Virus record (IMG/VR): IMGVR_UViG_3300005512_000002
Span: 1 to 64,000 of that record
DNA: 64,000 bases
Direction: 5' to 3' (one strand)
From: a virus
Lineage: Duplodnaviria > Heunggongvirae > Uroviricota > Caudoviricetes
Shown here: positions 205-43,657 of the stretch, one piece after another
How the letters are laid out: the number at the start of each line of letters is the position of its first letter
Position numbering within the stretch: position 1 is the stretch's first letter
Position numbers and translations under genes: made by a program
The notes under the pieces: model-generated
The model's database searches: none
The model's input: the letters and a program-made list of their open reading frames with translations, nothing else
What the model was told of the DNA's origin: nothing

Positions 205-260
205 CCGCGTCACGGCAGCACCGCAGGTGCGCCTGGCGGCGCGACCGCTAAGCAGCCGCC
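205..260 (+). repeat. Composite upstream repeat copy R1 (CGCGTCACGGCAGCACCGCAGGTGCG...GCGACCGCTAAGCAGCCG)
   Basis: Near-identical copies at 4866-4960, 5688-5752, 14766-14840 (+) and 16335-16425, 39669-39723, 43570-43657 (-); degenerate copy 38866-38930. Confidence 0.7.
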
Positions 261-328
261 CCAGCCGCCCGCACACGCCATCCACCTGCCGGCGTTCGCC
301 AAGGACGGCAGCCGGCTGGCCAAGGACA

Positions 329-1278
329 TGCTCCTGGCCCGCCTGGTGGTCCGCTGCCCGGACTTCGCCTGCAAGATCCAGGGCGGCACCGTCTCGGCCG
401 CCGGCCACGAGATCAAGGGCAAGCACAGCATCGGTCGCTACCGCTACGACGTGGGCGCCGAGATCTTCGCGGACCTGACCACCAACAAGACCAGGATCGA
501 CGCCGTGCTGCACCAGTTCTCGGTGGTGGACGCCGAGGACGGCTTCCGCATGGTGCCCATGGAGAAGCGCGAGGACCTCTTGAAGGCCCTGGAGCCGCTG
601 ATCCAGAAGCGCATGGGCTACGGCCAGTGGCTCGATGAGCACTGGTTCAGCACCATCGTCCCGGCCATCCAGGCCGAGCATCCCGACCACTTCGAGTACA
701 TCCTGCAGCGGGCGGTCACCCCGCCGTTCGAGCCCCGGCTGGAAGTCGTGCTCAGCATGCGGCCCCTGGGCGTGCTGGGGCCCAACGACTTCGACTGGGA
801 CAAGCTCACCCCCAAGGAACGCGAACGCTGCATCCAGCGGATGCGCCAGCAGGCCGACGACCTGGCCCGCGAGCGGGTGCAGAAGATCTTCGACGGGTTG
901 CTCAACCCGATCGCCGATCTGGCCGTCGAGATCAACGGCCAGAAGCCCAATCCCAAGTTCAACCCCGACCAGCCCGAGGGCCCCAAGAACCGCAAGTTCC
1001 TGCCCGGCATCGGCGATGATGGCAAGAAGGCCACCGTGCTCGATCGCATGTTCCGCGAACTCGACCGGCTCTTGAACTTCAAGAGCTTCCTGACCCCGGA
1101 ACTGGTCAACCAGGTCGAGCAGGCCCGCACCAACGTCTCCCAGGCCGGCGGCAGCCTCGATCGGGTCAAGGCCAGCGCCACGATCAAACAGGCGATTCTC
1201 GCCAGCTTCAACTCCGTGGCGGCCACCATGCGCCAGCAGTCCGAGGCCGCCCAGCAGCACGCGCGACCCGTCTCGTGA
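329..1278 (+). CDS. Hypothetical protein (start uncertain; ORF frame open from nt 1 through the repeat)
   Basis: Long ORF 1-1278, 316 aa from ATG 329; no recognisable motif; N-terminal extension would be translation of repeat DNA. Confidence 0.4.
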
Positions 1279-1322
1279 AACACGAGACGGGATGCGAAGG
1301 CGCAAGCGTACTACCATCACCC

Positions 1323-1907
1323 ATGGGCAACGCAGACCATCCGACCTCGCCGAAGAAAAACTTCCGGGGGAGTCTGGGGTTCGAGCGCACGGTCTCCACC
1401 GCCTTCGAGGACGTGCTCTACTGCAAGTTCATGCCCGGGTTCCTGCTGGCCGAGGATATCGAGCCCCTGACGCTGCACCTGGGCTATACCAACCCCATCC
1501 AGATGGCCAAGGACCACCTGGTGGCCTCGCCCGGCTCGACGGTCGTGAAAGACGGCGCCATCCACCGCCTGGGGACCCTGGTACCGGCCCGTGCTCCCAT
1601 CGGGAGCACGGGCCAGCTTGCGTTTGGCGAGTCTTCACAGGGCCCGTGCAAGTTCCTGGACCGCAACGACCGCTGTATCATCCACGCGCAGGCGCCCTGG
1701 GCCTGCGCTTTCTGCGACTCGATCATGTCCAAGGCCGAAGGCGATCGCCGAACCCTGGCGGCCAACATCGAGTTGTGGAAGTCCTGGCACGGCCGGGCAG
1801 ACGGCTACGCCGACCTGTGGCAGATCCTGTGGACCATGGGCCGGCGCGGGATCGCCCCGCGACTGTCCCGGGCCCGCATCCTCGCCGCCCTCAAGCAACG
1901 GGGATAA
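1323..1907 (+). CDS. Hypothetical Cys/His-containing protein (start uncertain)
   Basis: ORF 1275-1907; CIIHAQAPWACAFCDS cysteine cluster; contains CTTCCGGGGG motif near 5' end. Confidence 0.35.
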   Translation: MGNADHPTSPKKNFRGSLGFERTVSTAFEDVLYCKFMPGFLLAEDIEPLTLHLGYTNPIQMAKDHLVASPGSTVVKDGAIHRLGTLVPARAPIGSTGQLAFGESSQGPCKFLDRNDRCIIHAQAPWACAFCDSIMSKAEGDRRTLAANIELWKSWHGRADGYADLWQILWTMGRRGIAPRLSRARILAALKQRG

Positions 1908-2001
1908 GCCCTAAGAACCCAACACCAAAAAAGTTTCCCGCCAAACCGCAAGCGTGGAAGATGGTCGCTTGCGCCTGCACATCATCTTGGTGAGATATCC
2001 C

Positions 2002-3147
2002 ATGAGCATCAGCTTCACCACCACCACACCCAGTGTAACGACTGCACCGTCAGGTTCGCCCTCGTCGCCACCGCCCAGCCCTGCGGCGCCCGCCCCCGGC
2101 GGGCTCACCGAGCAGGAACTGGAACAGCGCCGCCGCTACATCGGGGCCAGCGAGGTTCCGGTGATCGTTTTGGGCGACAGCTATCCGTGGCGCCGCTACT
2201 TCAACCAGCTAAGCCTCTACCGCCAGAAGCTGGGCCTGGAAACGCCCCGGCCCCGCACCGCCGCCACCGACGCGGGCCTGTGGCTGGAAGACTCGCTGAT
2301 CCGCTTCGCCTACCACACCGTGGGCAAGGGCAATCGCAAGCACCGCCGGGTCACCCATCCCAACGGGGTCATGCAGGCCACCCTCGATGCTAAAGTTCCA
2401 GCACAACGTCGGGTCCTGGAACTGAAAAGTGTCGGCGAGACTTCGGTGCGTTGGCCCCGCGAACGCTGGGGGCATCCCGACCAAGTCGTCACCGGGCCCG
2501 ACCAGTGCAGCCCGTGTCTGGGCTTCGACCCGCATGGCGGCCCAGTGTTCGGCGAAGGCGTTGTTCCCATCGAGTATTACTGGCAGGTCATCGCCCAGGT
2601 GGCCTGTATCAACGCACGCGGAGCGGTGCTGGCCCAGCAGCACGGCAAGCCGTTTATCCCTTATCTGGGCGGCTACCTCGCCGCCCACCTGCCCGGCACC
2701 CATCAGCCCTACCGCCTCTACACCATCGACGCACTGCCCGAACACGTCAGCTTCGTCGAGAACACGGTCTGCGACTGGTACGAGCAGCACCTGGTCAACC
2801 AGGTCGCCCCGGACATGGTGATGACCGTCGGTTCGTTCCTGAACAGTGTGCTCGCCGACGACACCGCCGAGGTGCCCGACGACCTGTTCGAGGCCGTGCT
2901 GCCGCTGCGACAGCAGCGCTCCGAGCACGAACGGCGTTCCCGCCAGTTGGAAAAGCAGATCAAGGAGCACGAAGCCGCCATCTGGCAGGCCGCCGGCAAC
3001 GTCAAGCGGGTCACCTGCCCCGCCGGCCACGTGGCCGAACGGGTTGCCCGCCACCGCAAGGCCATGGCCGCCAGCACCTACCAGCAGACCGTCTACTACG
3101 CCCCGCCCCTCGGGGATCAGCCAGACACCGACGACACGCAGGAGTAA
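2002..3147 (+). CDS. YqaJ-like viral recombinase-associated exonuclease (lambda Exo-like PD-(D/E)XK)
   Basis: YIGASEVPVIVLGDSYPWRRYFNQLSLYRQKLG matches the YqaJ N-terminal motif; ELK acidic/Lys motif; GGTGAG RBS before ATG 2002. Confidence 0.7.
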   Translation: MSISFTTTTPSVTTAPSGSPSSPPPSPAAPAPGGLTEQELEQRRRYIGASEVPVIVLGDSYPWRRYFNQLSLYRQKLGLETPRPRTAATDAGLWLEDSLIRFAYHTVGKGNRKHRRVTHPNGVMQATLDAKVPAQRRVLELKSVGETSVRWPRERWGHPDQVVTGPDQCSPCLGFDPHGGPVFGEGVVPIEYYWQVIAQVACINARGAVLAQQHGKPFIPYLGGYLAAHLPGTHQPYRLYTIDALPEHVSFVENTVCDWYEQHLVNQVAPDMVMTVGSFLNSVLADDTAEVPDDLFEAVLPLRQQRSEHERRSRQLEKQIKEHEAAIWQAAGNVKRVTCPAGHVAERVARHRKAMAASTYQQTVYYAPPLGDQPDTDDTQE

Positions 3148-3150
3148 ACC

Positions 3151-4101
3151 ATGAGCACCCCCGGAAATCAGCCCATCCAGTTCAACCGACCGAATCGCAC
3201 GCACAACACCCAGCCCCGCAGCTTCACCCCGGAGCGACCCGCCACCTCGCCGCCCGCCGCCAAACCGCAAGCGACGCCGCAAGCCTCGCCGCAAGAGCAG
3301 GTGCACGAAGGAACCGGGCGCGGCCCGGCCAAGTGGAAGCAGCGCCCCAACGAAAGCTGCACGCCGAAAGAAATCCTGGAACTGCTGGCCAGGTACCAGG
3401 CCCGCATCCAGGAACTGATCCCGCCGCAGGTCACCCTCACCGCCGCGCGGCTCATTCGGCGGATCGAGGTCCAACTTCGCCGCAATCGGGAACTGGGCCT
3501 GTGCACTCCGTCCAGCGTGGTGACCACCGTCGGGGCCGCCGCCGCCATGGGCCTGGATATCTGCGACGGCCAGGTGTCCGTGCGCATCAACTGCGCCCGC
3601 CATGAAAGCGAGATCGTGTTTCGCTACGCCAGTCCGATCGTGGCGTATCCCGGCCTTCTCCTGATCGCGGCACGCAACGGCTTTGCCATCTCCGCCCAGG
3701 CCGTGCACGAGCACGACCAGTTCGAGTTCGGACACGAGGGCGATCAGTACCACGTGCACTGGCGGCGGGCCCTCGACCAGAAAGGCAAGCTGATCGGGGC
3801 CTTCGCCAAGTTCTCCGACAAGGCCTCCGGGCACATGGTGCACGTGGAGTTCATGGACGCCCAGCAGATCGACCAGGTCGCCGGCGATCCCAAGTACCGC
3901 AGTGCCACCTGGAGTGCCTGGCCGACCGAGCTATGGAGAAAGTCACCCATTCGCAGGGGTTTCAAGATGCTGCCGGCATTGTCCGACAGTCTCAAGGTGG
4001 CCATCCAGGTCACCCAGCAGGATGAGACCGGCGAACCGCTGGACGACCTGCTGGACCTGTACCCGGAAGCTCACCCGGAAGATGGCGACGACTTGACTTG
4101 A
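3151..4101 (+). CDS. recT: RecT-family single-strand annealing protein
   Basis: CTPSSVVTTVGAAAAMGLDI, YPGLLLIAARNGF, AVHEHDQFEF, WSAWPTELWRKSPIRRGFKMLP match RecT (PF03837) blocks; immediately follows the YqaJ exonuclease. Confidence 0.65.
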   Translation: MSTPGNQPIQFNRPNRTHNTQPRSFTPERPATSPPAAKPQATPQASPQEQVHEGTGRGPAKWKQRPNESCTPKEILELLARYQARIQELIPPQVTLTAARLIRRIEVQLRRNRELGLCTPSSVVTTVGAAAAMGLDICDGQVSVRINCARHESEIVFRYASPIVAYPGLLLIAARNGFAISAQAVHEHDQFEFGHEGDQYHVHWRRALDQKGKLIGAFAKFSDKASGHMVHVEFMDAQQIDQVAGDPKYRSATWSAWPTELWRKSPIRRGFKMLPALSDSLKVAIQVTQQDETGEPLDDLLDLYPEAHPEDGDDLT

Positions 4102-4210
4102 TCCTGGTGCTGGCGCAGGATATGGCCGGGGCCCGGAGTTCTTTGGGAAGGTGCCGCCGGCACTGGCTCCGGACCCGGCTCGTATCCACTTCGCCAAGGA
4201 GTCTGCTCCC

Positions 4211-5194
4211 ATGACAGCGGACACTGTCGTAAGCCCCGACATACGACCCGAGCAGGAAGCTCAAGACGACCAGGACATCCACGTCATCGCTGACAGCAAG
4301 TCCGGGCGCTTCTGGAGTGCCCAGCGACAACGCTTCGTGCGTCAGCACTTTTACGCCACCGAGTACCGGGACCCCAGGCAGGCAGCCGGCACCGCCAAGC
4401 GACTCGCACAACACTGGGGTCACAACAGCAAGGGATACACACCGGGAGCAACCAAGTCACCCGACCTGGTCGTGCTGCATCGCAGACAGATCCAGAACTT
4501 CCTCGATCGCCAGCAACGCACGGACAAAGTCACCATGCAGAGCACACCGCAGCCCGGGCACGCCGGCTCGCCGTTCACCGCCCAGCAACTACACGAGATG
4601 GGCTACGTGGTGATCGACATCGACGACGGCACCTGCTACGGCGGGGCCCAGAACCCGCACTTCTACGCCGACTGGCAGCGGGCCCACGAATACAACCGGC
4701 TGGGCAACGCCACCAACGTACTGAGCAAGATCAACGACCCGACCCGCTTCGCCGTGGTCCGCACCGGCCACGCCCAACGCATCCGCCAGGCCCTGCTCGG
4801 GGCCAACGGCCGACGACCACAGATCCAGGTGCTCGACCCCGACCGCGTGCACATCCACACCCCACCCCCGCCCCCGGAAGCCCCGGAAACTCCCCGCGTA
4901 ACGGCAGCACCGCCAGATGCGCCTGCCGGCGCGACCACCAAGCCGCCCCCGGAAGCCCCACAAGCACGCCCGGACACCGCCAGGGCCCTGGAGAAACTCG
5001 CCGAAGCGGTCAACCAGTACGCCACCGCCCACCAGCAACTGGCCCAGGCCCGGGAACAACTCCAGCAATACGCCGAGTCCCTGCGGCACAACCTGCACAA
5101 ACTCGAAGACGAGACCCTGGCACTGGGCCTGCAAGTCGAAGAAGCCGACACAGCCCTGAAACAAAGCCTGATCAAGGTCCCGGACAAACCATGA
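4211..5194 (+). CDS. Hypothetical protein with repeat-derived Pro/Ala linker and C-terminal coiled coil
   Basis: AAGGAG RBS 9 nt before ATG 4211; repeat copy R2 read through in-frame (PPPPEAPETPRVTAAPPDAPAGATTKPPPEAP); C-terminal heptad-rich segment. Confidence 0.5.
   Translation: MTADTVVSPDIRPEQEAQDDQDIHVIADSKSGRFWSAQRQRFVRQHFYATEYRDPRQAAGTAKRLAQHWGHNSKGYTPGATKSPDLVVLHRRQIQNFLDRQQRTDKVTMQSTPQPGHAGSPFTAQQLHEMGYVVIDIDDGTCYGGAQNPHFYADWQRAHEYNRLGNATNVLSKINDPTRFAVVRTGHAQRIRQALLGANGRRPQIQVLDPDRVHIHTPPPPPEAPETPRVTAAPPDAPAGATTKPPPEAPQARPDTARALEKLAEAVNQYATAHQQLAQAREQLQQYAESLRHNLHKLEDETLALGLQVEEADTALKQSLIKVPDKP
4866..4960 (+). repeat. Composite repeat copy R2 embedded in-frame in a CDS
   Basis: cccgcccccggaagccccggaaactccccgcgtaacggcagcaccgccagatgcgcctgccggcgcgaccaccaagccgcccccggaagcccc. 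Confidence 0.65.
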
Positions 5195-5688
5195 GCCACG
5201 TCACCCGCATCAAGATGAAGATCAAGAGCCTCGACGCCCTCAAGGCCGCCGTCGCCCGCTTCGAGAACCTGGAATGGCGCGAGGGTAAGAAGACCCACAA
5301 CTGGTGGGGCAGATTTCAAGGCGACTACAACGACGGAACCATCCGTCCCGACCAGATGGGCAAGTGCGACCACGCCATCGCCCTGACGGGATCACCCTGG
5401 CTGGACCACGCCGACCGCAGCCAGCCCTACGAGGTCGGTGTCTGCGCCGAGCCCGACGGCACCTGGCGGCTGCAACTGGACTTCTACAGCGGCGGCCGGG
5501 GCCTGTGCTCCGTGGTGGGCGAGAAGTGCCAGAAGCTCAAGCACGCCTACGCCCTGGAGTATGCCAAGGAGAAGCTCAGCACGCAGATCGGGGCCGGCTG
5601 GCGGGTCACCGAGGTCCCCCAGGAAGACGGCAGTGTCAACCTGGAGGTCAGCGAGTCGGCCGGCAGTATCGCCGCCGGCTGGAGATAG
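5191..5688 (+). CDS. DUF1257 family protein (Ycf35-like)
   Basis: N-terminus MSHVTRIKMKIKSLDALKAAVARF matches the DUF1257 signature MSHF..IKTKIKD...L..AL; ATGA overlap with upstream gene. Confidence 0.6.
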   Translation: MSHVTRIKMKIKSLDALKAAVARFENLEWREGKKTHNWWGRFQGDYNDGTIRPDQMGKCDHAIALTGSPWLDHADRSQPYEVGVCAEPDGTWRLQLDFYSGGRGLCSVVGEKCQKLKHAYALEYAKEKLSTQIGAGWRVTEVPQEDGSVNLEVSESAGSIAAGWR

Positions 5689-5752
5689 CCCCGGCGTTGC
5701 CGCGTCACGGCAGCACCGACAGGTGCGACTGCCGATGCGACCGCTAAGCCAA
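5688..5752 (+). repeat. Composite repeat copy R3 immediately upstream of the DUF2997 gene
   Basis: ccgcgtcacggcagcaccgacaggtgcgactgccgatgcgaccgctaagcc followed by AAGGAG RBS and ATG 5766. Confidence 0.65.
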
Positions 5753-5765
5753 GGAGCAACCACAG

Positions 5766-5963
5766 ATGCGTAAAATCATCGTTCACGTCCCGGCCGACCC
5801 GGAAGAAGACACCGTCACCGTCACCACCGAGGGCTTCGACGGCCCGGCGTGCCTGGAGGCCACCGCCGAACTGGAACGGGCCCTGGGCGACACTGTCGCC
5901 GAGGAACGCACCCCCGAGTTCTACGAACGCCAGGACGACATCCGTCTGGCACAGGAAAGATAG
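5766..5963 (+). CDS. DUF2997 family small protein
   Basis: MRKIIVHVPADPEEDTVTVTTEGFDGPACLEATAELERALG...TPEFY matches the DUF2997 pattern (kveG..G..C.e....le..lG....e.TpEYY); partner of DUF1257. Confidence 0.6.
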   Translation: MRKIIVHVPADPEEDTVTVTTEGFDGPACLEATAELERALGDTVAEERTPEFYERQDDIRLAQER

Positions 5964-6024
5964 CCGCCAAACCGCAAGCGACACCCACAATCCACGCTTG
6001 CGCCTCCACATTCGGGAATCTCCC

Positions 6025-6297
6025 ATGATCGCACGTACCACCCTCAAGATCCATCCCGACGGCCAGATCGAGTTTATTCACGACGATGAGCTTGTCGAGA
6101 TGTTCCAGGACGCCATCGCCGACCAGCACACCACCCGTGCTTCCCACGTCGAGCCCAGCCAGACCAGCCCCGGCACCTGGGACGCGGACTTGTCGCCGGT
6201 GGGTGGTCCGCTGCTGTGCGGATTTGCCAAGCGGCAAGCCGCCCTCCAGGCGGAAGTCGCCTGGCTCAACGCCCATTACCTGCACATATCATCGTAA
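6025..6297 (+). CDS. Hypothetical protein
   Basis: ORF 5998-6297, ATG at 6025; preceded by GCCAAACCGCAAGCG 15-mer and CGCAAGCG/GCTTGCG hairpin. Confidence 0.35.
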   Translation: MIARTTLKIHPDGQIEFIHDDELVEMFQDAIADQHTTRASHVEPSQTSPGTWDADLSPVGGPLLCGFAKRQAALQAEVAWLNAHYLHISS

Positions 6298-6334
6298 CCG
6301 ACATCGCATCCAGCACCCTTCACAAGGAGACCCC

Positions 6335-6835: not shown

Positions 6836-6837
6836 CC

Positions 6838-7955: not shown

Positions 7956-8200
7956 AAATCTATAAGGTCAGCGTCCACGATCCCGACGAAGGAGCCTGTC
8001 TAAGCTGGCACGCCAGTCTGGCAGAGGCCAACAAGGCTCGCCGCAAGGCCAAGCACACCATCTACATGGCCACCCAAATCTGCAAGGACGCCCGGAGGGA
8101 CGCCGGTGAACCGTCCCACATCACCACCATGCAGATCCCCATGACCAAGCAGGGCCTGCTCGATTGGCTCAACAGCCACTTCACCCACGACAACGGTTAG
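7952..8200 (+). CDS. Hypothetical small protein
   Basis: ATGA overlap with the upstream gene; 82 aa. Confidence 0.4.
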   Translation: MKIYKVSVHDPDEGACLSWHASLAEANKARRKAKHTIYMATQICKDARRDAGEPSHITTMQIPMTKQGLLDWLNSHFTHDNG

Positions 8201-14605: not shown

Positions 14606-15007
14606 ATGTTCCGCGAGTTCACCCTGACCGAGACCGACTTTCCCTTGGGTTGCCGGGTCATCAAGCCGATGTTGGGCCTGGGGCGCGATCGCACCGGCAC
14701 CGTGGTCGGCCACGACGTGTACCCCTATGCCGGTTATCAGACGCTGGTGCTGCTGGTAACCTGGGACCCCCGGAACCCCCGGAACGCCGCCCCCCCGTGT
14801 AACGGCCGCGGCGCAGTCGCCGGTGCCGCCAACAGCAAGCCCGGGAAAATCACCCGGCACCCGCTGGTGCACGACTCGCGGATCACGAGACTCGACGATG
14901 GCAACCCCCCGGAAGAAAACCCCCCGGAAGAAAGCACGCAAGAAAAAGGGTCCCCACCCGCCGATCGAGCACCCGATCAAGCCGACCCCGATCACCTGGG
15001 TGTCTGA
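14606..15007 (+). CDS. Hypothetical protein; repeat copy R4 read through in-frame in C-terminal half
   Basis: ORF 14549-15007, ATG 14606; compact N-terminal domain then PRNPRNAAPPCNGRGAVAGAANSK from repeat DNA. Confidence 0.3.
   Translation: MFREFTLTETDFPLGCRVIKPMLGLGRDRTGTVVGHDVYPYAGYQTLVLLVTWDPRNPRNAAPPCNGRGAVAGAANSKPGKITRHPLVHDSRITRLDDGNPPEENPPEESTQEKGSPPADRAPDQADPDHLGV
14766..14840 (+). repeat. Composite repeat copy R4
   Basis: cccccggaaccccccggaacgccgcccccccgtgtaacggccgcggcgcagtcgccggtgccgcc. Confidence 0.55.
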
Positions 15008-16101: not shown

Positions 16102-16436
16102 CCCCGGGCAATCAGGGCTAACTTCCGGGGGCGCTTCAGTTTCTTGATCTCGGCTTCCCGTCTTGCGGCGTCAGCCCTTGTGGCAACGGGCTGCCGCCAG
16201 ACAAGCAGGACGGGCAGCCGGGATCTTGTATAGCGGGACCCCCGGCCGGCCATGTGATCCATGAGCCGACGGTGCAGGCCACTGGTCATGCCGCAGTACA
16301 GCGACCCGTCCACGCACAGCAACAGATAGACCCACCAGGCGTTCCGGGGGCGGCTGCTTAGCGGTCGCGCCGCCAGTCGCACCTGCGGTGCTGCCGTTAC
16401 GCGGCGGGAGCGGCTGGCGTTGGTGCCCGCCCGCAT
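16098..16436 (-). CDS. GIY-YIG nuclease superfamily protein (YhbQ/UPF0213-like); N-terminus derived from repeat copy R5
   Basis: WWVYLLLCVDGSLYCGMTSGLHRRLMDHMAGRGSRYTRSRLPVLLVW...RREAEIKKLKR matches GIY-YIG/UPF0213; no canonical start next to the domain, upstream ATGs at 16436/16466 read through the repeat. Confidence 0.6.
   Translation of the reverse strand: MRAGTNASRSRRVTAAPQVRLAARPLSSRPRNAWWVYLLLCVDGSLYCGMTSGLHRRLMDHMAGRGSRYTRSRLPVLLVWRQPVATRADAARREAEIKKLKRPRKLALIARG
16335..16425 (-). repeat. Composite repeat copy R5 (minus orientation)
   Basis: Reverse complement reads ccgccgcgtaacggcagcaccgcaggtgcgactggcggcgcgaccgctaagcagccgcccccggaacgcc. Confidence 0.65.
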
Positions 16437-17471: not shown

Positions 17472-18233
17472 CTAAGCGTCCCGGCTCTGCAGACCACCGC
17501 CAGCATGGTCCGGGGCGACCTGCAAATGGTCGTGCACGATCCGGTGGGTGTGGCTGATGATCGCCGCCGCCAGGCTTACCGGGACACACTTGAGGTCCTC
17601 GATGCGTAGCTGCTGCATCCAATGGGCCCGAGGCAAGGCACAATCCTTCTCCAGCACCTGGATCATCTGCTCGACCTGGAACGGTGCCGCCACTTGCGAG
17701 CCGGCCACCGGCGGCTGGGCCGCAGCCGCTGCGCGAGCATCACCCGGGGGCAGTTGCTGCATGCCCTGGAACGGGCTCTCGTCCTTCTCGTACAGGTGCA
17801 GTGAGAGGCCGAACTTGGTGGCCGCCTTGCGCAGCCCGTCGGTGTGGGCCGCCTTCAGGTCGTAGCCGAAATTGTCGCACCCCCCGGCCGGGTTGCGCGA
17901 CAGGTCCGCCTGACCCAAACCGTCCTTGTCAATGCTGACAGGGCTGCTTTCAGTCTGCACGTAGACCGTCAGCCGCACGTGTACCAGCACCTGGCCCTGG
18001 TCGGGGCTCAACCAGTGGCTCAAGACCCGGTCCGACCAGGCGTACCCGAACGCCTCGTTAAGCTGCCGGATCAGGGCCGCCGGCTTGGGGTACCACGGTG
18101 TGAAGCCGTCGCCCCCGGCCCGATAACAATCCTGACGAATGTCCGACGGTTGCACGTGCCGATCAAGCACCTCGGTCACCGTGACCGGGAGCCTGATCAC
18201 CATGCCAGACGTAGCCGCTTGCTTGTTCGTCAT
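17472..18233 (-). CDS. Rad52/Rad22-family single-strand annealing protein (Sak-like)
   Basis: AHTDGLRKAATKFGLSLHLYEKD matches the Rad52 AVTDGLKRALRSFGNALGN..LDKD block; LNEAFGYAWSDRV matches the N-terminal Rad52 region. Confidence 0.55.
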   Translation of the reverse strand: MTNKQAATSGMVIRLPVTVTEVLDRHVQPSDIRQDCYRAGGDGFTPWYPKPAALIRQLNEAFGYAWSDRVLSHWLSPDQGQVLVHVRLTVYVQTESSPVSIDKDGLGQADLSRNPAGGCDNFGYDLKAAHTDGLRKAATKFGLSLHLYEKDESPFQGMQQLPPGDARAAAAAQPPVAGSQVAAPFQVEQMIQVLEKDCALPRAHWMQQLRIEDLKCVPVSLAAAIISHTHRIVHDHLQVAPDHAGGGLQSRDA

Positions 18234-19069
18234 GCTGGGGGTCCACCTGGTTTTCTCGAATCGCCAGAACCCCCCGGGATTCCCACGGTCAAATGCTCGC
18301 GGCTGTAAGCCGCCCAGGCCCGCCGCAGGATCTCGGGGCCGTCCAGGGGCCGGTAGTCCCGCGCCGGCAGACTCACCGCCGGCCAGTAGTGCAGCATTCG
18401 CACCCCCGGAAGCCCCGGAAGCCCCGGAAGCCCTGCCGGGAGTTCCGGGCCGCCGGCCTTCGGCTCGTCCTGACCGAGGGTGTGGCGAATCGAACGCTCG
18501 GCCCGAAACGATGGATATGGCCCGATCGCCCCCGTGGTGATTTCAGGAGCAAGCTGCCAGCCCAGGTGAAAGTGGCTGACCAGGGTGGGCATCCAATCGT
18601 CCACGCGGGCGTAAGCGGGCAGCACCAGCAGCCGCAGCACACTCGGGTCCTTGAGCAGTTGCTCCTGCCGAATCGACTCGATGATCCGCCACTGCCAGGC
18701 CTGCTCCTGGGCCATCGGGAACCAGGCCCACACCGCCACCACCGGCACGCTGCCGTCGAGCACGCGCGGCCGGTAATGGAACGGAAGCTCGGTGTACTCC
18801 TCGCCCGGCAGCATCAGTTCGCTGTGCTTGTTCCACTGGTAGGCGTCACGCCCGCTGAAGGTGGTGTTGCACACCATCAGGGGGATCTGGCAGTTGGGGC
18901 ACAGCGTCTGGCCGATCTGGTAGCTGGCCGGCCACGGCTCGGCCAGGTGCACCACGTGCAGGCTCTTGAAGCCCGGCCGCCCCCGGAAGTTCCCCTTGCA
19001 GCACGGGCAGCGCAGCGGTGTCGGAAGCTGAGGCAGCAGATTGTTCGATCCGATCTGGCTCATGCTCAC
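18230..19069 (-). CDS. Hypothetical protein with N-terminal CxxC...CxxC zinc ribbon and GLPGLPGLPG from a CCCCGGAAG tandem
   Basis: LRCPCCKGN...CPNCQ; ccccggaagccccggaagccccggaagccc at 18403-18432 is read on the minus frame. Confidence 0.4.
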   Translation of the reverse strand: MSMSQIGSNNLLPQLPTPLRCPCCKGNFRGRPGFKSLHVVHLAEPWPASYQIGQTLCPNCQIPLMVCNTTFSGRDAYQWNKHSELMLPGEEYTELPFHYRPRVLDGSVPVVAVWAWFPMAQEQAWQWRIIESIRQEQLLKDPSVLRLLVLPAYARVDDWMPTLVSHFHLGWQLAPEITTGAIGPYPSFRAERSIRHTLGQDEPKAGGPELPAGLPGLPGLPGVRMLHYWPAVSLPARDYRPLDGPEILRRAWAAYSREHLTVGIPGGSGDSRKPGGPPA

Positions 19070-19560
19070 GCTTTCTGGGGCCCGCGTCGGGGGTCAGGCG
19101 CGGCTTTGCCGCTGCTGCTACGCATCTCCGGCTTGGCGGCTGCCGCACCAGCGGTGCCCGGCTTCCGGGGGGCCATCTGGGCGGTCATCTCGCGGATGGT
19201 CTGGTCATACTGCTCGTTGGTCTGCTTCAAGGCCGCCAGCAGTTCCTGCTCGGTGAGCAGGCCGCGACGCTGCAGGGCCAGTCGCAGGGCGGCAAGCTCC
19301 AGTTCCACCCGGGTCAGCATGTTCATCAGCATGATGAACGGGCCGGCCTGCTCGGGCAGCTTCTCCGGGTTCAGCATCGCCCGCTGCTGGGCGTCAAGCG
19401 TCAGCAGGTCCGCCACACGACCCTGGTCACCCACGAACACCTCGTCGCCGATCGCCGCCTGGTCCATCGGCGGCGGGATCGCCGCGCCGGGCCGGCGCAC
19501 GCGAAACCCCTTGCCGTCGAGGCTGGACATGCGATTGGGGTTGGGTGGTAGCTGGCTCAT
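19066..19560 (-). CDS. Hypothetical protein
   Basis: 4-nt overlaps with both neighbours; 164 aa. Confidence 0.4.
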   Translation of the reverse strand: MSQLPPNPNRMSSLDGKGFRVRRPGAAIPPPMDQAAIGDEVFVGDQGRVADLLTLDAQQRAMLNPEKLPEQAGPFIMLMNMLTRVELELAALRLALQRRGLLTEQELLAALKQTNEQYDQTIREMTAQMAPRKPGTAGAAAAKPEMRSSSGKAAPDPRRGPQKA

Positions 19561-38148: not shown

Positions 38149-38850
38149 TTAAGCTCCTGTCTCACCCAGTTCCGCCCGGGTATGCAAGGCCTGCTCGGAC
38201 CGCCCGGTGGATGCAGGCCGCTCGCGTTCGCCGTGGTTGATGATCCCCAGGATCTGGTCGAGATAATACTGGTTGATATTCTCGACCATGAGGTTGAGCC
38301 CAGCGACAATCCGCTCGGCCTGCTCGACGGGCATGTCATGGCCCTGGGCCCGCACGGTGCTCAGGAATCCCTCGACGGTATGGATGGGCTCGCAGTGACA
38401 GACAGGTTCGCCCTGCTCGATGGCGCGGTTCGCCGTGACCACCGTCTGGCCGGGCCCGGCCTGCGGCGGGGGTTTATCCGGGTCGAACGACTTGGCCAGG
38501 CCGTCGGCCAGTTCGGGGGGCAGAAAGCCAAGCTCGATCATGCGGCGGGTATGCAGGAAGCACATGATGTTCCAGGCCGCCGCCTCGGCGTGCGGCTCAT
38601 CGGTCCAGCCCTGGGCGGTCTTGGCCAGGTGCCTTGAGGCGGAACTGATGTACTCACGCAGGGGAATCCCCTGCTCCCAGTTGCGGTCGCCGTATTTCTT
38701 GCAGCCGGCCTCGAAGTGGCGGGCCAGCGCTTCCAGGGCGTAGTATGGCAGCAGGTCGAACCGGCCCTTGTTCTCGCCCATGTCACGCACGGCCCCGGTG
38801 CCGAAGTCGCGCCGGTTACCGGAATCCTTGATCACTGGACCGTTGGTCAT
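38149..38850 (-). CDS. Putative nucleotide pyrophosphohydrolase-like protein (dATP/dGTP diphosphohydrolase N-terminal-domain-like), uncertain
   Basis: KGRFDLLPYYALEALARHFEAGCKKYGDRNWEQGIP...RHLAK...DE.HAEAAAWNIM resembles the phage dNTP diphosphohydrolase N-domain. Confidence 0.35.
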   Translation of the reverse strand: MTNGPVIKDSGNRRDFGTGAVRDMGENKGRFDLLPYYALEALARHFEAGCKKYGDRNWEQGIPLREYISSASRHLAKTAQGWTDEPHAEAAAWNIMCFLHTRRMIELGFLPPELADGLAKSFDPDKPPPQAGPGQTVVTANRAIEQGEPVCHCEPIHTVEGFLSTVRAQGHDMPVEQAERIVAGLNLMVENINQYYLDQILGIINHGERERPASTGRSEQALHTRAELGETGA

Positions 38851-38930
38851 GGTCGTTGGCTCCATACAGGGGCGGCTTGGCCGCGCCCGTTACGCCTCCC
38901 CCGCGTGGCGGCTGCAGCACTAGCGGCGCC

Positions 38931-39668
38931 CTACAATTCCACCAGCTTCATCTTCTCGTCGTCGCTGAGCTTCAGGGCCTTGCGTTCGCTGAGGCCCTTG
39001 ACCTTCTTGAGTCGCTTGCGGATCAAGGCGATCTGCTGGAACTCCGGCAGGTCGCCGATGGGGGTGATCCCCCGGATGACGTTGATCACGATGCCGGCCA
39101 TCCAGGCGTGCATGTAGGCGTCGGCCTGGTCGTCGTCACGGAAAGCCTTGCCCAGGCGCTGGTGGACCTTCAGCAGGTACGCGGTGTCCTTGCTGGTGGA
39201 CCCGTCAGCCAGGCAGAAGGCCTTCATGGTCTTGACGTTCTGCACCACGAACAGTTGCTTGGCGAAGCGGGTGGTTTCCCAGGCCGCCGTCCGCTCCTCG
39301 ATGTTGTGGCCGGTGCCGTAGCCGAAGTGGTAGCCGTAGCCGTGGCACAGCCACTTGATCATGCCGCCAATCTCGGCCAGGCGGGTCAGGTTGTTGCTCT
39401 TGCCGCCGACCCCCACGGCGTAGTCCTCCATGACCACCACGTCCGGGTTGTGCTGCTCGATCACACTGGCGATGCGGGCCATAAGCTGCCCGGCCCGCTG
39501 CATACCCACAGCCTCACCATGGTCGAGGCTTTCGAGCACCACCGGCTCGGCCTGCTCGGCGAGGTCGTCGAGCAGGCAGAGGCCGGTGTGCCGGATGGAC
39601 TGGTCGATGGCGAAGATTCGCACGTTGAGGCTCCAGTACGGCGCGGCTTTGCCGCTGCCGCTGCGCAT
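38931..39668 (-). CDS. RuvC-like Holliday junction resolvase
   Basis: VRIFAIDQSIRHTGLCLLD, VVVMEDYAVGVGGKSNNLTRLAEIGGMI, DQADAYMHAWMAG match RuvC catalytic blocks; start set after the SSB stop. Confidence 0.6.
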   Translation of the reverse strand: MRSGSGKAAPYWSLNVRIFAIDQSIRHTGLCLLDDLAEQAEPVVLESLDHGEAVGMQRAGQLMARIASVIEQHNPDVVVMEDYAVGVGGKSNNLTRLAEIGGMIKWLCHGYGYHFGYGTGHNIEERTAAWETTRFAKQLFVVQNVKTMKAFCLADGSTSKDTAYLLKVHQRLGKAFRDDDQADAYMHAWMAGIVINVIRGITPIGDLPEFQQIALIRKRLKKVKGLSERKALKLSDDEKMKLVEL

Positions 39669-39723
39669 CACCGGCTTAGCGGCCGCACCGCAGGTGCGCC
39701 CTGTTTCCGGGGCGGGGGCGGGG
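39669..39723 (-). repeat. Composite repeat copy R7 between SSB stop and RuvC start
   Basis: Minus-strand reading ccccgcccccgccccggaaacagggcgcacctgcggtgcggccgctaagccggtg ATG. Confidence 0.6.
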
Positions 39724-40587
39724 TTAGAACGGGATCTCGTCCTGGGGCACCGGGCTGGAAGGCTGCGGTGCGTACCCGCCCTGTTGCTGCGGCGGCTGCT
39801 GGTAGCCGCCCTGGGGCTGCTGCTGTTGGGGCGGATAGCCACCGGGCTGACCAAAGGTCTGGCCCTGACCCTGCGGCGGGTAGCCGCCTTGCGGCTGCTG
39901 CGGCGGCTGGCCCTGGGGTGGATAACCACCCTGCGGCTGCTGGTAGCCGCCCTGGGGCTGCTGCTGGTAGCCGCCGCCCTGATGTCCGCCGCCCTGCTGC
40001 GGGGGCCGTTCGTCCACGTACTGCAGGTGCCCGATGACGGCGAACCCGGCCGGGTCCCGATCGTTGACCGAGATCTTGGGCAGGCGGATGATCTGGCCCT
40101 GCTGGTTCTTGAACGAGTCGATGCGCATCTCGCCCTTGACGGCGATCATGGTGCCCACCTGCAACTGGTTCATGATCTGCTGGCCGCGCTGGCCCCAGAT
40201 CACCACCCGCAGGTTGAAGGCCCGCACTTGCTCGGAGCCCTGGCTGGTGAAGGTCTTACGGACCTTGACGTTGATCTGCAGGTTGCCCTGGCCGCCGGTG
40301 CGGCTGGGCTGCCACTTCACGCCGTTGGGCACGCTCTGGGTGGGTGCGACCTGGCCGACCAGGGTGACCTCGTTGACATAGGGGAACTGGCCGGAGCCGA
40401 CGGCGGCAGCAGCCTGTCCCGCCCACGACGGAAGCTGTGCCTGGGGTGGCGCCTGCTGGCCCTGTGGCTGCTGGTACCCACCCTGTGGCTGCTGGTACCC
40501 ACCCTGCTGCGGCTGCTGGTAGCCGCCTTGTGGCTGCTGGAAATAACCCTGGGGCGGGGCTTGGTAGCCCGTGGGAGCTTGACTCAT
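39724..40587 (-). CDS. ssb: Single-stranded DNA-binding protein with Gln/Gly/Pro-rich tails
   Basis: OB-fold core [16 protein letters not shown]...[12 protein letters not shown]...[20 protein letters not shown] and canonical C-terminal tip DEIPF. Confidence 0.75.
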
Positions 40588-40645
40588 GGTGCTTTCTCCG
40601 TAAGTTGCTTAAAGCCGGCGACACGGGCCGGACAATGGGCGGTGG

Positions 40646-41746
40646 CTAAAGGGGCCTGGCTGCGGCCAGGGCCTGCTCGAAGACCGGGCGATCCACCAGG
40701 TCGCCGGGGTCCAGGGTCGGGGGTGGCGATGCAACAAAAACCGGGGCGCGTTGAGCCAAGGGCTTCGCATACGTCTCAACGCTCACTTCACCTGCCTTGT
40801 CGGCGTCCATGAACATGATGATCTTTTCCAAAGCGTACTGTCCTATGAGTCCCAATTGAATCTCACTCGGATTGGTACCCATGAAGCATAATACCTGAAA
40901 AACACCGTGTTGCCAACAGCGAAAGACATCTGTGAAACCTTCCACCACAATAAGTTCACGTTGTTCTCTTAGGGCAGTCTGGGTAAGCCCGCACCATAGT
41001 GGATAGAGTGTGAAACTCTTGCGAGTGCCGGGCAGGATCTTGTACTTCTGGTAGCGCAGGGCGTCATAGCGGCGACCGGAGAAGCCGATCAGCCGGCCGT
41101 CGGGCAGGCGCAGCGGCACCGACAGGCGATCCTCGAACCAGCCCTGGCGCTGAGCGGGGTTCTTGGGGTGGGCCCGGACCCAGGCCCCGGCCGGCACGTG
41201 ACCGATCTGCAGGGCCCGCAGGTCAGCCGGATCAAAGCCCCGCGCTTGCAGGTAGGCGTCGGCGACCGCCTGCTGCCGCAGCGAAAAGTCCACCATGGCC
41301 TCGTCGAAGAACTCGGGGACCTGGCGGTCGTCCAGTCCCAGCCGCTTGTTGAACGCGGCGATCTCATCGCGCTCCACCAGGGCCGGGTCCAGGCCCGGGC
41401 CCGAGCCCTGGTCCAGGCGAATGCCGGCGAACTGGGCCAGGAAGGCCAGGGCGCCCGGCTCGTCGATCTGGTAGTGCCGCATGGGCAGGGTGATCAGCGG
41501 GCCCGTACCACAACCGCGCGAGTAGCATTTCCAGATGGGGATCTCCCGGTCCACGAAGATCACGAAGTTCATCGGGCCGTCCCCGCGATGCAGCGGGCAG
41601 GTCGAACGGATCTCGTGCTGGTAATCGCAGACCTGGTCGGCCCCCAGGTATTGCAGCAGCCGCATCAGCAGATGCGGGTGCTGGCGGTACACCTCGTGGA
41701 CCTGGTCCACCTGGCGGTTGCGATAGGGGTCGGCCACCCGGCTCAC
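40646..41746 (-). CDS. dnaG: DnaG-type DNA primase (zinc-binding + TOPRIM)
   Basis: CPLHRGDGPMNFVIF...WKCYSRGCG zinc finger; LIVVEGFTDVFRCWQHG...LCFMGTNPS...IIMFMDADKAGE TOPRIM. Confidence 0.7.
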   Translation of the reverse strand: MSRVADPYRNRQVDQVHEVYRQHPHLLMRLLQYLGADQVCDYQHEIRSTCPLHRGDGPMNFVIFVDREIPIWKCYSRGCGTGPLITLPMRHYQIDEPGALAFLAQFAGIRLDQGSGPGLDPALVERDEIAAFNKRLGLDDRQVPEFFDEAMVDFSLRQQAVADAYLQARGFDPADLRALQIGHVPAGAWVRAHPKNPAQRQGWFEDRLSVPLRLPDGRLIGFSGRRYDALRYQKYKILPGTRKSFTLYPLWCGLTQTALREQRELIVVEGFTDVFRCWQHGVFQVLCFMGTNPSEIQLGLIGQYALEKIIMFMDADKAGEVSVETYAKPLAQRAPVFVASPPPTLDPGDLVDRPVFEQALAAARPL

Positions 41747-43569
41747 GGCGACCCCCCGCCCCCGGAAGCCGGCCCCTGGACACCGTCCGCGTACCCCTTG
41801 AGCATGGGGACGGCCGCCTCGGGCGGCGCGTCGAGCATGCCGTCGCCGCCATTAAGGGCCTGCTGATTCTGCACCCGGGCAGGCCCCTGGGCCATCATCC
41901 GCCCGCCGGATCGTCCGGGCGGGCCCTGGTGGCGCTGCAGTTGGCGCATGAAGCGCTCGACCTCGTCGTACTGGCCCCCGGCAGCCTGCCCGTCGGGCGA
42001 CCGTCGCCAATCGTGCACCTCCTCGTAGCGAAACAGACCACGATGGTTATACAGGGCGATGCCCACCGTGCCGGGCGGGCCGTGGCGGTTGACCCCTTCG
42101 TGCAGCACCTGATCGTAGAGCAGCTTGCCCCGGTCGTGGCCCTGGGGCCGGGCATTGGGCCAGTGCTCCTCGATGGCCTGCGCCTCGTCGTCGGTCACGT
42201 GGCGCAGGTCGAAGCGGGCGGTGCAGAACCAGTTCAGCCGGTCACTGGCGGCAGTGGCCAGGTCCCCCTGGCGGTTCCAGTTCTTGCGGTCGATCTTGAC
42301 CGCCTCCTTGTTGTGCTGGGCCCCGGCGACCACCGTCAGGTCCAGGTGCTTGGCCGCATCCTTGATGGCCGAGGCCTGGAAGCCCAGGGCCTGGAACTCG
42401 GCCTGCTGCTTGGTGATCGAGTCGCCACCCGGGAGTTTGAGCCAGTCGTAGATGGTCAACGAGGGGTTACTCACCCGGTAGGTCCGTCCACCCACGGCGA
42501 TATCCTGGTAGCCCACGTAACGGCTGCGGAACTGCCGCATGGCGGCGGTGATGAAACTCACCGGCCGACCGGCCACGTTCACGTAGTACAGCGGGATGTT
42601 GTTAAGCTGGCCGACCGCCTGTTGCACCGCCCTCTCGGCGGTCCCGTCGGCGAGCATGCGTCCGGCCAGGATCTCGTGCTCCTTGTACCCCGAGCAATGG
42701 GCCAGGGATCGTGAATAGATTTCCCCGCGCGACATCTCGTTGTCGATGTACAGCACGGGGATACCCTGGCTGGCGGTGTGCAGGGCCAGGCACATCAGCA
42801 GGGTGGTCTTACCGGTCTTGGGCCGGGCGGCCAGGATGGTCAATCCCTCGCGCCGGAACCCGCCCCCCAGGGCGTGCATCCACTGGGGGAACAGGTCGCA
42901 CTTGAGGTAGAACATATTCAAGTGCGGGTAGTTCTGGTTGATCCAGATCTTGGCCTGGGTCTCGGGCCCCTGGTCGCCCATGCGGGTGATACTGGCATCG
43001 CCCTCGCCGTACTGGAAGGCCATGCGGGCGAAGGTGCTTTCCGCCTCGACGGCCAGTTCCTGGGCCTTGGGGTTGCCCGCCAGGTTCAAAGCCGCTTCCT
43101 GCATGGTCCGGGCGTGGCGATAGATCTGCACCCGCATGGCCCGATCCTGCAGGGCATAGATCGCCTGCTCGAACTCACCGGGCTTGAGGTTGTAGCCCAG
43201 CCGCTGCAGTTCACGGACCTGGTCCAGCAGGTCGGTGCTGGCCAGCAGTCGCTGCTCGTAGGCCCTGCCTAGCCAGTGGGCCACGGTCAGCATGGCCGTC
43301 GGCTCGAAGCACAGGTCCCAGCCGTGCTCACCGGCCAGGTCGGCCATGAACAGCAGGATCTGGTAGATCCGCCGGTGCATCTGGCCGAACACGGCGTCCG
43401 CCGGCACGGCGTGGCGGGCCCGGTCCACCAGGTCCGGCTGGCGGATCAGGCAGGCCAGAAAGATACGCTCGGCGGCCAGGTGGTAGAGCCGGGCCTCCTC
43501 GTGGCGCAGCACCGTGGGGTCGATCAGGGTTCGGGTTGTCTGGGTCTGCGGGTCCAACGCTGGATGCAA
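41743..43569 (-). CDS. dnaB: DnaB-family replicative DNA helicase (true start uncertain; track start is TTG)
   Basis: GLTILAARPKTGKTTLLMCLALHTASQG Walker A in a RecA-like C-domain, IDNEMS, N-terminal DnaB-like helical domain. Confidence 0.75.
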   Translation of the reverse strand: MHPALDPQTQTTRTLIDPTVLRHEEARLYHLAAERIFLACLIRQPDLVDRARHAVPADAVFGQMHRRIYQILLFMADLAGEHGWDLCFEPTAMLTVAHWLGRAYEQRLLASTDLLDQVRELQRLGYNLKPGEFEQAIYALQDRAMRVQIYRHARTMQEAALNLAGNPKAQELAVEAESTFARMAFQYGEGDASITRMGDQGPETQAKIWINQNYPHLNMFYLKCDLFPQWMHALGGGFRREGLTILAARPKTGKTTLLMCLALHTASQGIPVLYIDNEMSRGEIYSRSLAHCSGYKEHEILAGRMLADGTAERAVQQAVGQLNNIPLYYVNVAGRPVSFITAAMRQFRSRYVGYQDIAVGGRTYRVSNPSLTIYDWLKLPGGDSITKQQAEFQALGFQASAIKDAAKHLDLTVVAGAQHNKEAVKIDRKNWNRQGDLATAASDRLNWFCTARFDLRHVTDDEAQAIEEHWPNARPQGHDRGKLLYDQVLHEGVNRHGPPGTVGIALYNHRGLFRYEEVHDWRRSPDGQAAGGQYDEVERFMRQLQRHQGPPGRSGGRMMAQGPARVQNQQALNGGDGMLDAPPEAAVPMLKGYADGVQGPASGGGGSP

Positions 43570-43657
43570 CTCCTGGCGGCTGCTTAGCGGGTGCGGCGTC
43601 AGCCGCCCCGTACAACGGCGTAAGGGGCACCTGCGGTGCGGCCGTTACGCGGGGGAA
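43570..43657 (-). repeat. Composite repeat copy R8 immediately upstream of dnaB
   Basis: Minus-strand reading ccccgcgtaacggccgcaccgcaggtgcccc...cgctaagcagccgccaggag then gene start. Confidence 0.6.

Follow-up and report, generated by a model that had tools for sequence, protein, structure and literature searches.

A short GC-rich repeat family dispersed in gene orientation through genes and gene junctions of a phage-like genome

The stretch of DNA analyzed here, hereafter the window, comprises the 64,000 nt at positions 1 to 64,000 of the IMG/VR virus record IMGVR_UViG_3300005512_000002 (Caudoviricetes), with a G+C content of 65%. A gene map built from codon usage and G+C at third codon positions (GC3) gives a plus-strand gene block at 1-16101, a minus-strand block at 16098-47793, a second plus-strand block at 48379-61247 and minus-strand genes from 61479 to the window end. 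Pfam and PHROG matches, from a protein scan covering ~40 open reading frames (ORFs) of the window, depict a phage-type replication, recombination and nucleotide-metabolism region. The recombination set includes RecE/YqaJ-like exonuclease, RecT-like, Rad52-like, UvsX/RecA-like and RuvC-like proteins; SSB, primase and DnaB represent replication, a dATP/dGTP diphosphohydrolase-like protein represents nucleotide metabolism, and GIY-YIG, D12 methyltransferase and DUF2997 proteins are also encoded. No virion genes lie within these 64 kb and no tRNA was found. Scattered among these genes is a family of ~60-base GC-rich units, the subject of this work, present in 12 copies in the window (c1 to c12) and constituting its main dispersed repeat by self-BLAST.

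The family is real. Self-BLAST aligns c1 (205-262) with c5 (16404-16347) at 56/58 identical positions (97%, E = 2e-21), and the remaining pairs among the copies at 205, 4894, 5700 and 16404 at E = 2e-10 to 6e-07, while an nhmmer profile made from five copies retrieves the five full ones at E = 2e-18 to 2e-15. Word counts agree: the exact 13-nt palindrome GCACCGCAGGTGC occurs four times against 0.02 expected, the 5′ word GYGTMACGGCMGC seven times against 0.06 and GCGACCGCTAAGCAGCCG, allowing up to 3 mismatches, three times against 0.15. Short contigs from the Joint Genome Institute (JGI; L013, L025 and L026, sample 3300001419) are 99.96-100% identical to parts of the window, and c1, c11, c3, c6 and c9 are present in these independently assembled sequences, so assembly did not create the repeats.

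A full copy consists of CGCGTMACGGCMGC, the palindrome, a spacer and then GCGACCGCTAAGC(AGCCGCC), a structure found only in c1, c2, c3, c5 and c7. Copy c1 (205..262, plus strand) carries the 13-nt palindrome version and lies in ORF 142-1278, 63 nt past the ATG at 142, where it is read in frame b (PRHGSTAGAPGGATAKQPP). Copy c2 (4894..4944, plus) has an extra loop base (GCACCGCCAGATGC) and is translated, as PRVTAAPPDAPAGATTKPP, in a linker of ORF 4211-5194. Copy c3 (5700..5750, plus) is non-coding, begins 11 nt after the TAG of ORF 5191-5688 and has on its 3′ side AAGGAG directly, then the ATG of the DUF2997 gene (5766). Copy c5 (16347..16404, minus) occupies the 43-aa N-terminal extension of the GIY-YIG ORF 16098-16466, in frame a (RRVTAAPQVRLAARPLSS). 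Finally, c7 (43577..43652, minus) is non-coding, sits in the 100-nt spacer from the stop at 43658 to the DnaB start and carries a 22-nt hairpin-forming insertion between its two conserved blocks, both of which are kept.

The other seven copies are partial or degenerate. Copies c4 and c8 have in common the 5′ block and a variant continuation but nothing more (93% identity across 30 nt): c4 (14796..14825, plus) consists of the 5′ block GTGTAACGGCCGC and that continuation in ORF 14606-15007, frame b, preceded by two CCCCGGAAC nonamers (14766-14785), and c8 (44795..44827, minus) lies in the Pro/Ala-rich N-terminal region of ORF 43658-44941, frame a. The degenerate partial c12 (17705..17751, minus) is related to c8 and falls in the tail after the Rad52-like domain of ORF 17472-18203, and c11 (2029..2078, plus; nhmmer E = 0.0012), also degenerate, falls in the N-terminal extension of ORF 2002-3147. 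A second subfamily is formed by c6, c9 and c10, mutually 80-91% identical, in which the palindrome and CCGCYAAGCCGG precede the GCGYAGCRGCAGCGGCAAAGCC segment. In c6 (39640..39723, minus) the order is CCCCGGAAA, palindrome, CCGCTAAGC, GCGCAGCGGCAGCGGCAAAGCC, and the palindrome loop is flipped relative to the gene, matching the plus strand. The degenerate, non-coding c9 (38867..38931, minus) fills the 80-nt spacer from RuvC to the dGTPase-like gene. Copy c10 (19095..19159, minus) is translated and forms the tail at the C terminus of ORF 19066-19530, stops 32 nt short of the ATG of the next gene (19063) and is 91% identical to 39640-39683 and 80% identical to 38867-38931 by self-BLAST. Identity runs down along the family, from 97% identical pairs to fragments.

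An original prediction, made from the sequence alone, had placed one composite element at eight positions. Related sequence is indeed found at every one of them, and c11, c12, c10 and c8 (2029-2078, 17705-17751, 19095-19159 and 44795-44827) add to that list. The two-block composite it described is present at c1, c2, c3, c5 and c7, with only the 5′ block kept at 14796-14825; its single block order fails at 39640-39723 and 38867-38931, which belong to the subfamily of different order. Its core palindrome recurs but is not uniform, given the flipped loop at 39.7 kb. One extra loop base is present in c2, c3 and c11 (GCACCG-N-CAGRT), giving a half-site spacing of 3 or 4 nt.

Eight of the 12 copies lie within ORFs, in two different reading frames, and four are non-coding; the third frame has a TAA in both blocks and is never the one used. 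Despite their 56/58 identity, c1 is read PRHGSTAGAPGG and c5 is read RRVTAAPQVRLA; similarly, c4 is read PCNGRGAVAGA and c8 PRVTAAAQPPV. Because near-identical DNA serves more than one frame, what is conserved is the DNA and not a peptide. Translation through the copies, as originally proposed for at least three of them, is supported: the codon-position G+C pattern of ORF 4211-5194 is the same on both sides of c2, with no stop, codon-position G+C also favours ORF 14606-15007 as coding (GC3 0.83-0.90), and the GIY-YIG domain begins at residue 44 of its ORF, whose ATG (16466) comes immediately after the upstream stop and is served by a GAGGA ribosome-binding site. In the ORF starting at 2002 the YqaJ/RecE-like domain begins at residue 37-40, c11 lies inside the 36-39 residue extension and no alternative canonical start exists between 2002 and the domain. 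The Pro/Ala-rich N-terminal region carrying c8 is also present in orthologues.

At the non-coding sites, c3 and c7 each start about 10 nt after a TAG stop, and a Shine-Dalgarno (SD) sequence follows the 3′ block of all four copies: AAGGAG in c3, CAGGAG in c7 and TGGAG in c6 and c9. Copy c6 is a non-coding 5′ leader if RuvC starts at the GTG at 39623, a start to which both the alignment with relatives and a PHROG match beginning at residue 1 point. Read-through of TAG at the copies that follow such stops was considered and rejected: 21 of 82 genes end in TAG, the standard code leaves the genes intact, and at 65% G+C it is common for long open frames to extend past stops.

One could view the family as a protein-level module, that is, a shared flexible linker or short peptide (PRVTAAP...GATAKQPP) exchanged among proteins, the non-coding copies being leftovers. 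All eight translated copies do lie in tails or linkers, with Pro/Ala/Thr/Gly-rich peptides; the version with a 14-nt loop has one open frame only, RVTAAPxGAxAxATAKP in c2, and the same frame follows the stops at c3 and c7; and one frame, read by hand, has the RNY (purine, any base, pyrimidine) and GC3 look typical of coding sequence. However, the best-conserved pair, c1/c5, encodes different peptides, as does c4/c8, nucleotide identity exceeds peptide identity, four copies are non-coding and the TAA of c7 sits in the DnaB frame. We consider a peptide module improbable.

Comparison with relatives points in the same direction as the frames. DnaB homologues 39-48% identical to that of the window are found on long contigs of 131 kb (NCBI GCA_040384165.1) and 189 kb (Logan assembly). 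Four related loci (L020, L023, L027 and L028; 64.7 kb summed) are syntenic with the window at ~34-54 kb, sharing the order ribonucleotide reductase, dCMP deaminase, divergent region, RecA-like, conserved unknown gene, DnaB, primase and then SSB, RuvC, dGTPase-like, PD-(D/E)XK, glycosyltransferases and PHP-domain polymerase. An nhmmer search of these 64.7 kb found no copy of the element, and no analogous dispersed repeat was seen in the two relatives checked. The gene upstream of DnaB ends in TRHTP in the window and in two aligned relatives, and from its stop to DnaB there is an ATGA overlap in L020, 5 nt in L023, an overlap in L027 and a 50-nt gap in L028, against 100 nt in the window, made up of c7 and the SD sequence. 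Similarly, the spacer from RuvC to the next gene is 80 nt (c9) in the window and 10-14 nt in three relatives, and that from SSB to RuvC is 100 nt (c6) against 42-49 nt in two relatives. On these alignments the copies are best read as lineage-specific additions at gene junctions. This, along with the reading of the same DNA in different frames, supports the earlier proposal of DNA tolerated within coding sequence.

In the SSB gene itself (39724-40587, minus), long internal coding repeats of QGGYQQPQ type flank the oligonucleotide-binding (OB) fold on both sides, and the SSB genes of relatives have analogous but different coding repeats.

Broader searches returned the genome itself. Pattern scans of IMG/VR (3 patterns), of 185,579 GTDB species genomes and of JGI metagenomes gave chance matches and L013, a fragment of the same genome. 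Neither a megablast of positions 1-20000 nor a blastn of the element matched any INPHARED phage, and tblastn of DnaB reached only Bacillus phages, at ~25% identity. No related loci were found in IMG/VR for two window proteins; a set of 5.8 billion proteins held no homologue of the YqaJ-like protein, and the 142-1278 protein matched only itself. Look-ups of exact proteins yielded no variants and nothing but short contigs of this genome, all from one JGI sample.

These scans bear on a host-derived repeat carried into the phage, whether of the repetitive extragenic palindromic/bacterial interspersed mosaic (REP/BIME) kind or a miniature inverted-repeat transposable element (MITE). A short, GC-rich, palindrome-bearing, multi-copy sequence would suit such an origin, and sharing with the host chromosome at similar density had been named as one of two findings that would overturn the original prediction. 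The two-block pattern, required as an exact match, gave only chance matches in the 185,579 representative genomes and, with the metagenomes, nothing beyond the same genome; the host itself was not identified. In addition, terminal inverted repeats are not significant, as detailed below, and most copies are inside genes. A host origin is very improbable.

Copies of the element are often accompanied by a shorter word, CCCCGGAA, the most over-represented octamer of the window, with 48 matches at 36 loci (about 10-15-fold) against 4.5 expected by dinucleotide shuffles and 3.2 by an order-3 Markov model (z = 25). Inside genes there are 38 matches, compared with 4.1 ± 2.0 under codon-order shuffles, and the word is six-fold denser in non-coding DNA. 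Its context extends to an 11-12 nt word, RCCCCCGGAAGY. It is found on both strands and in all three frames, reading PPE, PRN/PRK or PG in sense and FRG, SGG or LPG in antisense; the four relatives have one copy in their 64.7 kb. The original prediction had counted such units as part of the element. Their proximity is non-random, but only five of the 12 copies have one within 30 nt (always in the orientation of the element; P ~0.0007), and the nonamer stands as a DNA word in its own right, specific to the lineage and often marking element ends. Five tandem CCCCGGAAN nonamers open the window (11..54, plus), ~150 nt upstream of c1, and three tandem CCCCGGAAG nonamers (18404..18429, plus) are translated GLPGLPGLPG; since the latter array is antisense to its gene, the nonamer is not tied to gene orientation. 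Further RCCCCCGGAAGY examples lie at 4872-4888, 14768-14784, 50717-50770 and 54468-54553. A binding site, a Chi-like word and a recombination target are candidate functions.

Some side observations concern these words. L013 starts at window position 16 and L025 at 4849, inside or just before CCCCGGAA nonamer arrays, and the first bases of the window also fall within such an array; short-read assemblies are broken by repeats, and array copy numbers may therefore be underestimates. The sequence CCCCCGGAAGTTAGCCC occurs three times, at 16123 (minus), 50719 (plus) and 54524 (minus). Three CGGAAGTTrGCCCA units immediately precede the ribonucleotide reductase gene, and an inverted pair lies upstream of gene 54554.

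Our preferred account, which we hold tentatively and short of confidence, is of a lineage-specific repeat that has recently expanded at the DNA level, through recombination or mobilisation, and that linkers and gene junctions tolerate. It builds on the DNA-level conservation across frames, the lineage-specific presence and the insertion at junctions described above, and on the lack of promoter, inverted-repeat and fold signals given below. We infer the copying mechanism and the lack of a dedicated function. A GC-rich segment of ~50-75 nt would be copied to new genome sites by a DNA-level process, most likely recombination at short homologies, or gene conversion, with dispersed RCCCCCGGAAGY and CAGCCGCCCCCG stretches as the microhomologies, catalysed by the recombination proteins that the genome encodes (RecT-like, RecE/YqaJ-like, Rad52-like, UvsX/RecA-like, RuvC-like); strand-specific mobilisation is a second possible process. 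The single open frame of the 14-nt-loop version would allow an origin as linker-coding sequence. Copies would persist only where harmless, namely between a stop codon and the SD sequence of the next gene, in disordered N- or C-terminal tails and in inter-domain linkers, in the two frames without TAA. As a side effect, formerly overlapping, translationally coupled junctions would become spacers of 80-100 nt with the SD sequence after the copy. The gradient of decay among copies is as expected for non-functional ones.

The flanks of the copies inform on the route. At c2 a 17-nt direct repeat, CCGCCCCCGGAAGCCCC, occurs at 4868 and 4943, 75 nt apart, and at c5 the 12-nt CAGCCGCYCCCG is repeated directly 60 nt apart; both spacings are multiples of 3. 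No flanking direct repeats were seen at c1, c3 and c7. The repeats at c2 and c5 take in the element's own 3′ end (CAGCCGCCCCCGGAA) and look more like short-homology recombination or duplication than like a transposase-made target duplication. Terminal inverted repeats of the five full copies were no better, at their best match, than composition shuffles (P = 0.08-0.9). Without significant terminal inverted repeats the earlier MITE label does not hold; nor was a consistent target-site duplication seen at these five copies.

Two other routes were tried and set aside. GCGTAAC and GCTAAGC invite comparison with the inverse-core and core sites of integrons, but an attC-like reading is undercut by ends that are not significantly complementary, by the lack of an integrase and by the synteny of the flanked genes in relatives. 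A reading of the A/C differences between c1 and c5 as the product of a diversity-generating retroelement was rejected, given that other copies differ at non-A positions and that no reverse transcriptase was seen.

Several observations weigh against a passively spread repeat. No transposase was found among the ~40 ORFs scanned and no transposase or nuclease is linked to the element. All 12 copies are co-oriented with the local gene, as the original prediction had said of its own set, an arrangement with P ~2e-4 under a purely neutral, orientation-blind process; by a hand check on c1, the antisense orientation also has two stop-free frames. Either a strand-specific mechanism acted, or selection disfavoured antisense copies, or the element functions at the transcript level. 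The copies are concentrated in the replication/recombination blocks at 0-6, 14.7-19.2 and 38.8-44.9 kb, with none in the sugar-metabolism block or at 45-64 kb, and c7 keeps both conserved blocks in spite of its insertion. The relatives are distant (DnaB at most 48% identical), so gain here is not strictly separable from loss there. As to orientation, with an origin in the divergent, repeat-rich stretch near 48 kb and an end near the convergent point at 16.1 kb, gene direction could equal replication direction, and a replication-strand-specific mechanism would then yield the same pattern.

The same facts suit an oriented cis-regulatory site of a replication/recombination regulon, be it a transcript 5′-region element to which a phage protein or RNA binds, a processing site, or an asymmetric, stoperator-like DNA site where a phage repressor halts elongation. 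Besides the orientation with transcription and the conservation within c7, 10 of the 12 copies fall within a range of about -75 to +110 nt relative to a start codon, and the genes concerned are confined to replication and recombination (RecE/YqaJ-like, GIY-YIG, RuvC, dGTPase-like, DnaB and its upstream partner, Rad52-like). In c6 and c9 the shared sequence runs on through the SD (GTAyTGGAGCC) as far as the start codon, and a basic protein at 6335-6835, with no Pfam or PHROG match, is by eye possibly winged-helix-like. A second protein once proposed as cognate binder, at 46819-47793, counts against the reading, being apparently conserved by synteny in relatives that do not have the element. Yet four syntenic relatives run the same genes without it, and its distance to the start codon (16 to ~42 nt from the 3′ block in non-coding copies), its block spacing and its half-site spacing are all variable. 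Copies c2 and c12 are mid-gene, ~250 nt from the next start codon. The placement at gene 5′ ends that had been reported is real, but is largely what any insertion between tightly packed genes would give. At the RNA level, fold stability of the copies is no better than that of dinucleotide shuffles (z -1.9 to +0.9), the common stem has only 5 bp, the consensus fold has 0 compensatory pairs and Rfam shows no family at the copies at gathering or relaxed thresholds. We regard a regulatory site as possible, though on balance rather unlikely; if it is one, it would define a lineage-specific replication/recombination regulon in an uncultured group of large phages.

As for transcription initiation, no sigma-70-like hexamer pair overlaps any copy. 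Such promoters are found elsewhere, in AT-richer spacers: TTGCAA-17-TATGAT at 10708 and TTGCCA-17-TAGAAT at 15799, with further candidates at 20421-20518 and 55931-56033. By eye, a sigma-54 reading of TGGCGGCGCGACCGC fails on the GG missing in c2 and c3, and a reading of GGAAC...CGTAAC as a site of extracytoplasmic function (ECF) type fails on its spacing. Together with the fold and Rfam results, these nulls remove the usual signatures, though the element may yet have a protein-binding or transcript-level role. With variable spacings, eight of 12 copies in ORFs and absence from relatives, the originally proposed promoter, operator or start-associated reading finds little support. Independently of the element, a AACCCAACAC word stands near CTAAG at 97-113 and 1911-1930, in AT-richer leaders upstream of genes 142 and 2002, and this word may be part of real promoters.

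A more specific variant makes the element the promoter of a phage-encoded RNA polymerase or sigma factor, T7-type or hairpin-promoter-like. T7-type promoters are conserved and roughly 23 nt long, and a 26-nt block of the element, CGCGTAACGGCAGCACCGCAGGTGCG, is nearly invariant across five co-oriented copies and holds a 5-bp stem with a 3-nt loop. However, no RNA polymerase or sigma gene turned up among the ~40 ORFs scanned from this 64-kb window (relatives' contigs reach 131-190 kb, so the window would be the lesser part of the genome), host-type sigma-70-like promoters are present elsewhere in it, and the hairpin spacing is broken in three copies. Most copies are inside ORFs just past start codons, the wrong side for that gene, and most relatives join DnaB to its upstream gene without a spacer. 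We deem such a promoter quite improbable.

There is finally a recent or still ongoing intragenomic invasion to consider, by a new kind of strand-oriented mini-element with no terminal inverted repeats and no enzyme gene of its own, using RCCCCCGGAAGY as landing or homology site, copied by the phage single-strand-annealing machinery or by an ssDNA-based mechanism, and landing in frame in replication/recombination proteins and in junctions. This we find unlikely, if less so than the host, promoter and peptide readings. Were it true, it would be a case of selfish DNA in protein-coding genes, akin to the Rickettsia palindromic elements (RPEs), in a virus of bacteria.

In the usual view, repeats and transposable DNA are strongly purged from phage genomes, and insertion sequences are rare in phages; a dozen tolerated 60-nt copies would therefore be unusual for a phage-like genome. 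If the preferred account of a recently spread, DNA-level repeat is true, the window would be a clear example of sequence that has recently spread within a viral genome, would illustrate how linkers, N-terminal tails and intergenic spacers with ribosome-binding sites of their own arise anew, and would supply concrete material for the recombination at short homologies to which phage mosaicism is ascribed.

The window holds other features of note. A second repeat family, GCCGCCAAACCGCAAGCG-N11-14-CGCTTGCGCCTSCACAT, with an 8-bp inverted repeat, occupies the spacers at 1937-1985 and 5963-6015, upstream of the RecE/YqaJ-like gene (2002) and of gene 6025, and is found in coding sequence too (3260-3273 and 6516-6529); its gapped inverted-repeat core, CGCAAGCG-N-CGCTTGCG, is present two times where 0.00 are expected. 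Between divergent genes, the 585-nt intergenic region at 47794-48378 has TTCACCCTGGGGCGCT three to four times (48096-48191) along with AT-rich stretches, and the palindromes of relatives at the same region differ, being of TTGACGGCACCGTCAA type in L023 and TTGGCACA type in L020; the region probably serves in control or as an origin, with operators particular to each lineage. An exact inverted repeat of 26 nt (54151-54176 and 62198-62223), containing TCTGAGATTTGAGATTTGAGATCGC, lies just downstream of the gene ends at 54130 and 62240. The gene at 38149-38850 (minus) encodes a protein with a dATP/dGTP diphosphohydrolase N-terminal domain (PF18909, 1.9e-19) and adjoins a ~15-kb block (23171-38142, minus) of apparent sugar-nucleotide and glycosyl/sulfo-transfer enzymes, judged from translations and from the Pfam marks of relatives only; together they may hint at nucleotide-pool manipulation or at DNA or surface glycan modification. 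A small ORF at 11082-11342 (plus) has a IPGYPGYQVDQAGRV motif, by eye a lookalike of the NUMOD4-type homing-endonuclease DNA-binding module.

Set beside known systems, the element has one or two properties in common with each, yet in every case lacks at least one feature by which the system is defined. RPEs inside genes, as Ogata et al. reportedly described in 2000, stay in frame and are translated as extra peptide segments. Rickettsia felis has 728 RPEs, 85 of them within ORFs (PMC1166351). As with RPEs (PMC1166351), we see a short interspersed repeat in coding and non-coding DNA, whose coding copies here lie in stop-free frames. RPEs, however, are ~100-150 bp long, palindromic along their length and present in hundreds of copies in a bacterial chromosome; unlike them, the element has ~60 nt and 12 copies in a phage-like genome, is strictly co-oriented with genes and folds no more stably than shuffles. 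PeSL (promoter/stem-loop) cassettes of T4-like phages are repeated, lie between genes and have been proposed as recombination substrates (PMC4122927, PMC2839356). The element is likewise a composite cassette in a non-structural region, with SD and start codon at the 3′ end in the four non-coding copies only, but PeSLs are intergenic and combine a sigma-70-like -35/-10 promoter with a stem-loop, whereas the element has no such hexamers and two-thirds of its copies are in ORFs.

Start-associated sequences and their extended form (SAS/ESAS) of Cluster K mycobacteriophages show near-uniform orientation, occupy the non-structural half, have long upstream spacers and are absent from the host (PMC3203893). 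The element is similarly asymmetric, in one orientation and at the starts of non-structural genes with unusually long spacers. SAS, in contrast, measures 13 bp, takes the position of the ribosome-binding site within a few nt of the start codon and is conserved at orthologous genes across subclusters, while the element has ~60 nt, lies 16-42 nt from the start or in an ORF and is absent from four syntenic relatives. The stoperators of Cluster A mycobacteriophages are also dispersed asymmetric sites, and between their orientation and that of transcription there is a striking correlation (PMC9283540), matched by our 12/12; they are 13-mers, more than 20 in number, in promoters and short intergenic spaces and with a known repressor, whereas the element lies mostly in ORFs with variable internal spacing. 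MITEs, found in ~0.01% of viral genomes, have by definition terminal inverted repeats no shorter than 10-15 bp together with 2-10 bp target-site duplications (PMC11602168). The element is, like them, small, non-autonomous-looking and multi-copy; unlike them, it has no significant inverted repeats, and its flanking direct repeats are found at two copies only and measure 12-17 nt. It is thus an interspersed short repeat of a compact genome that stands outside every named family compared.

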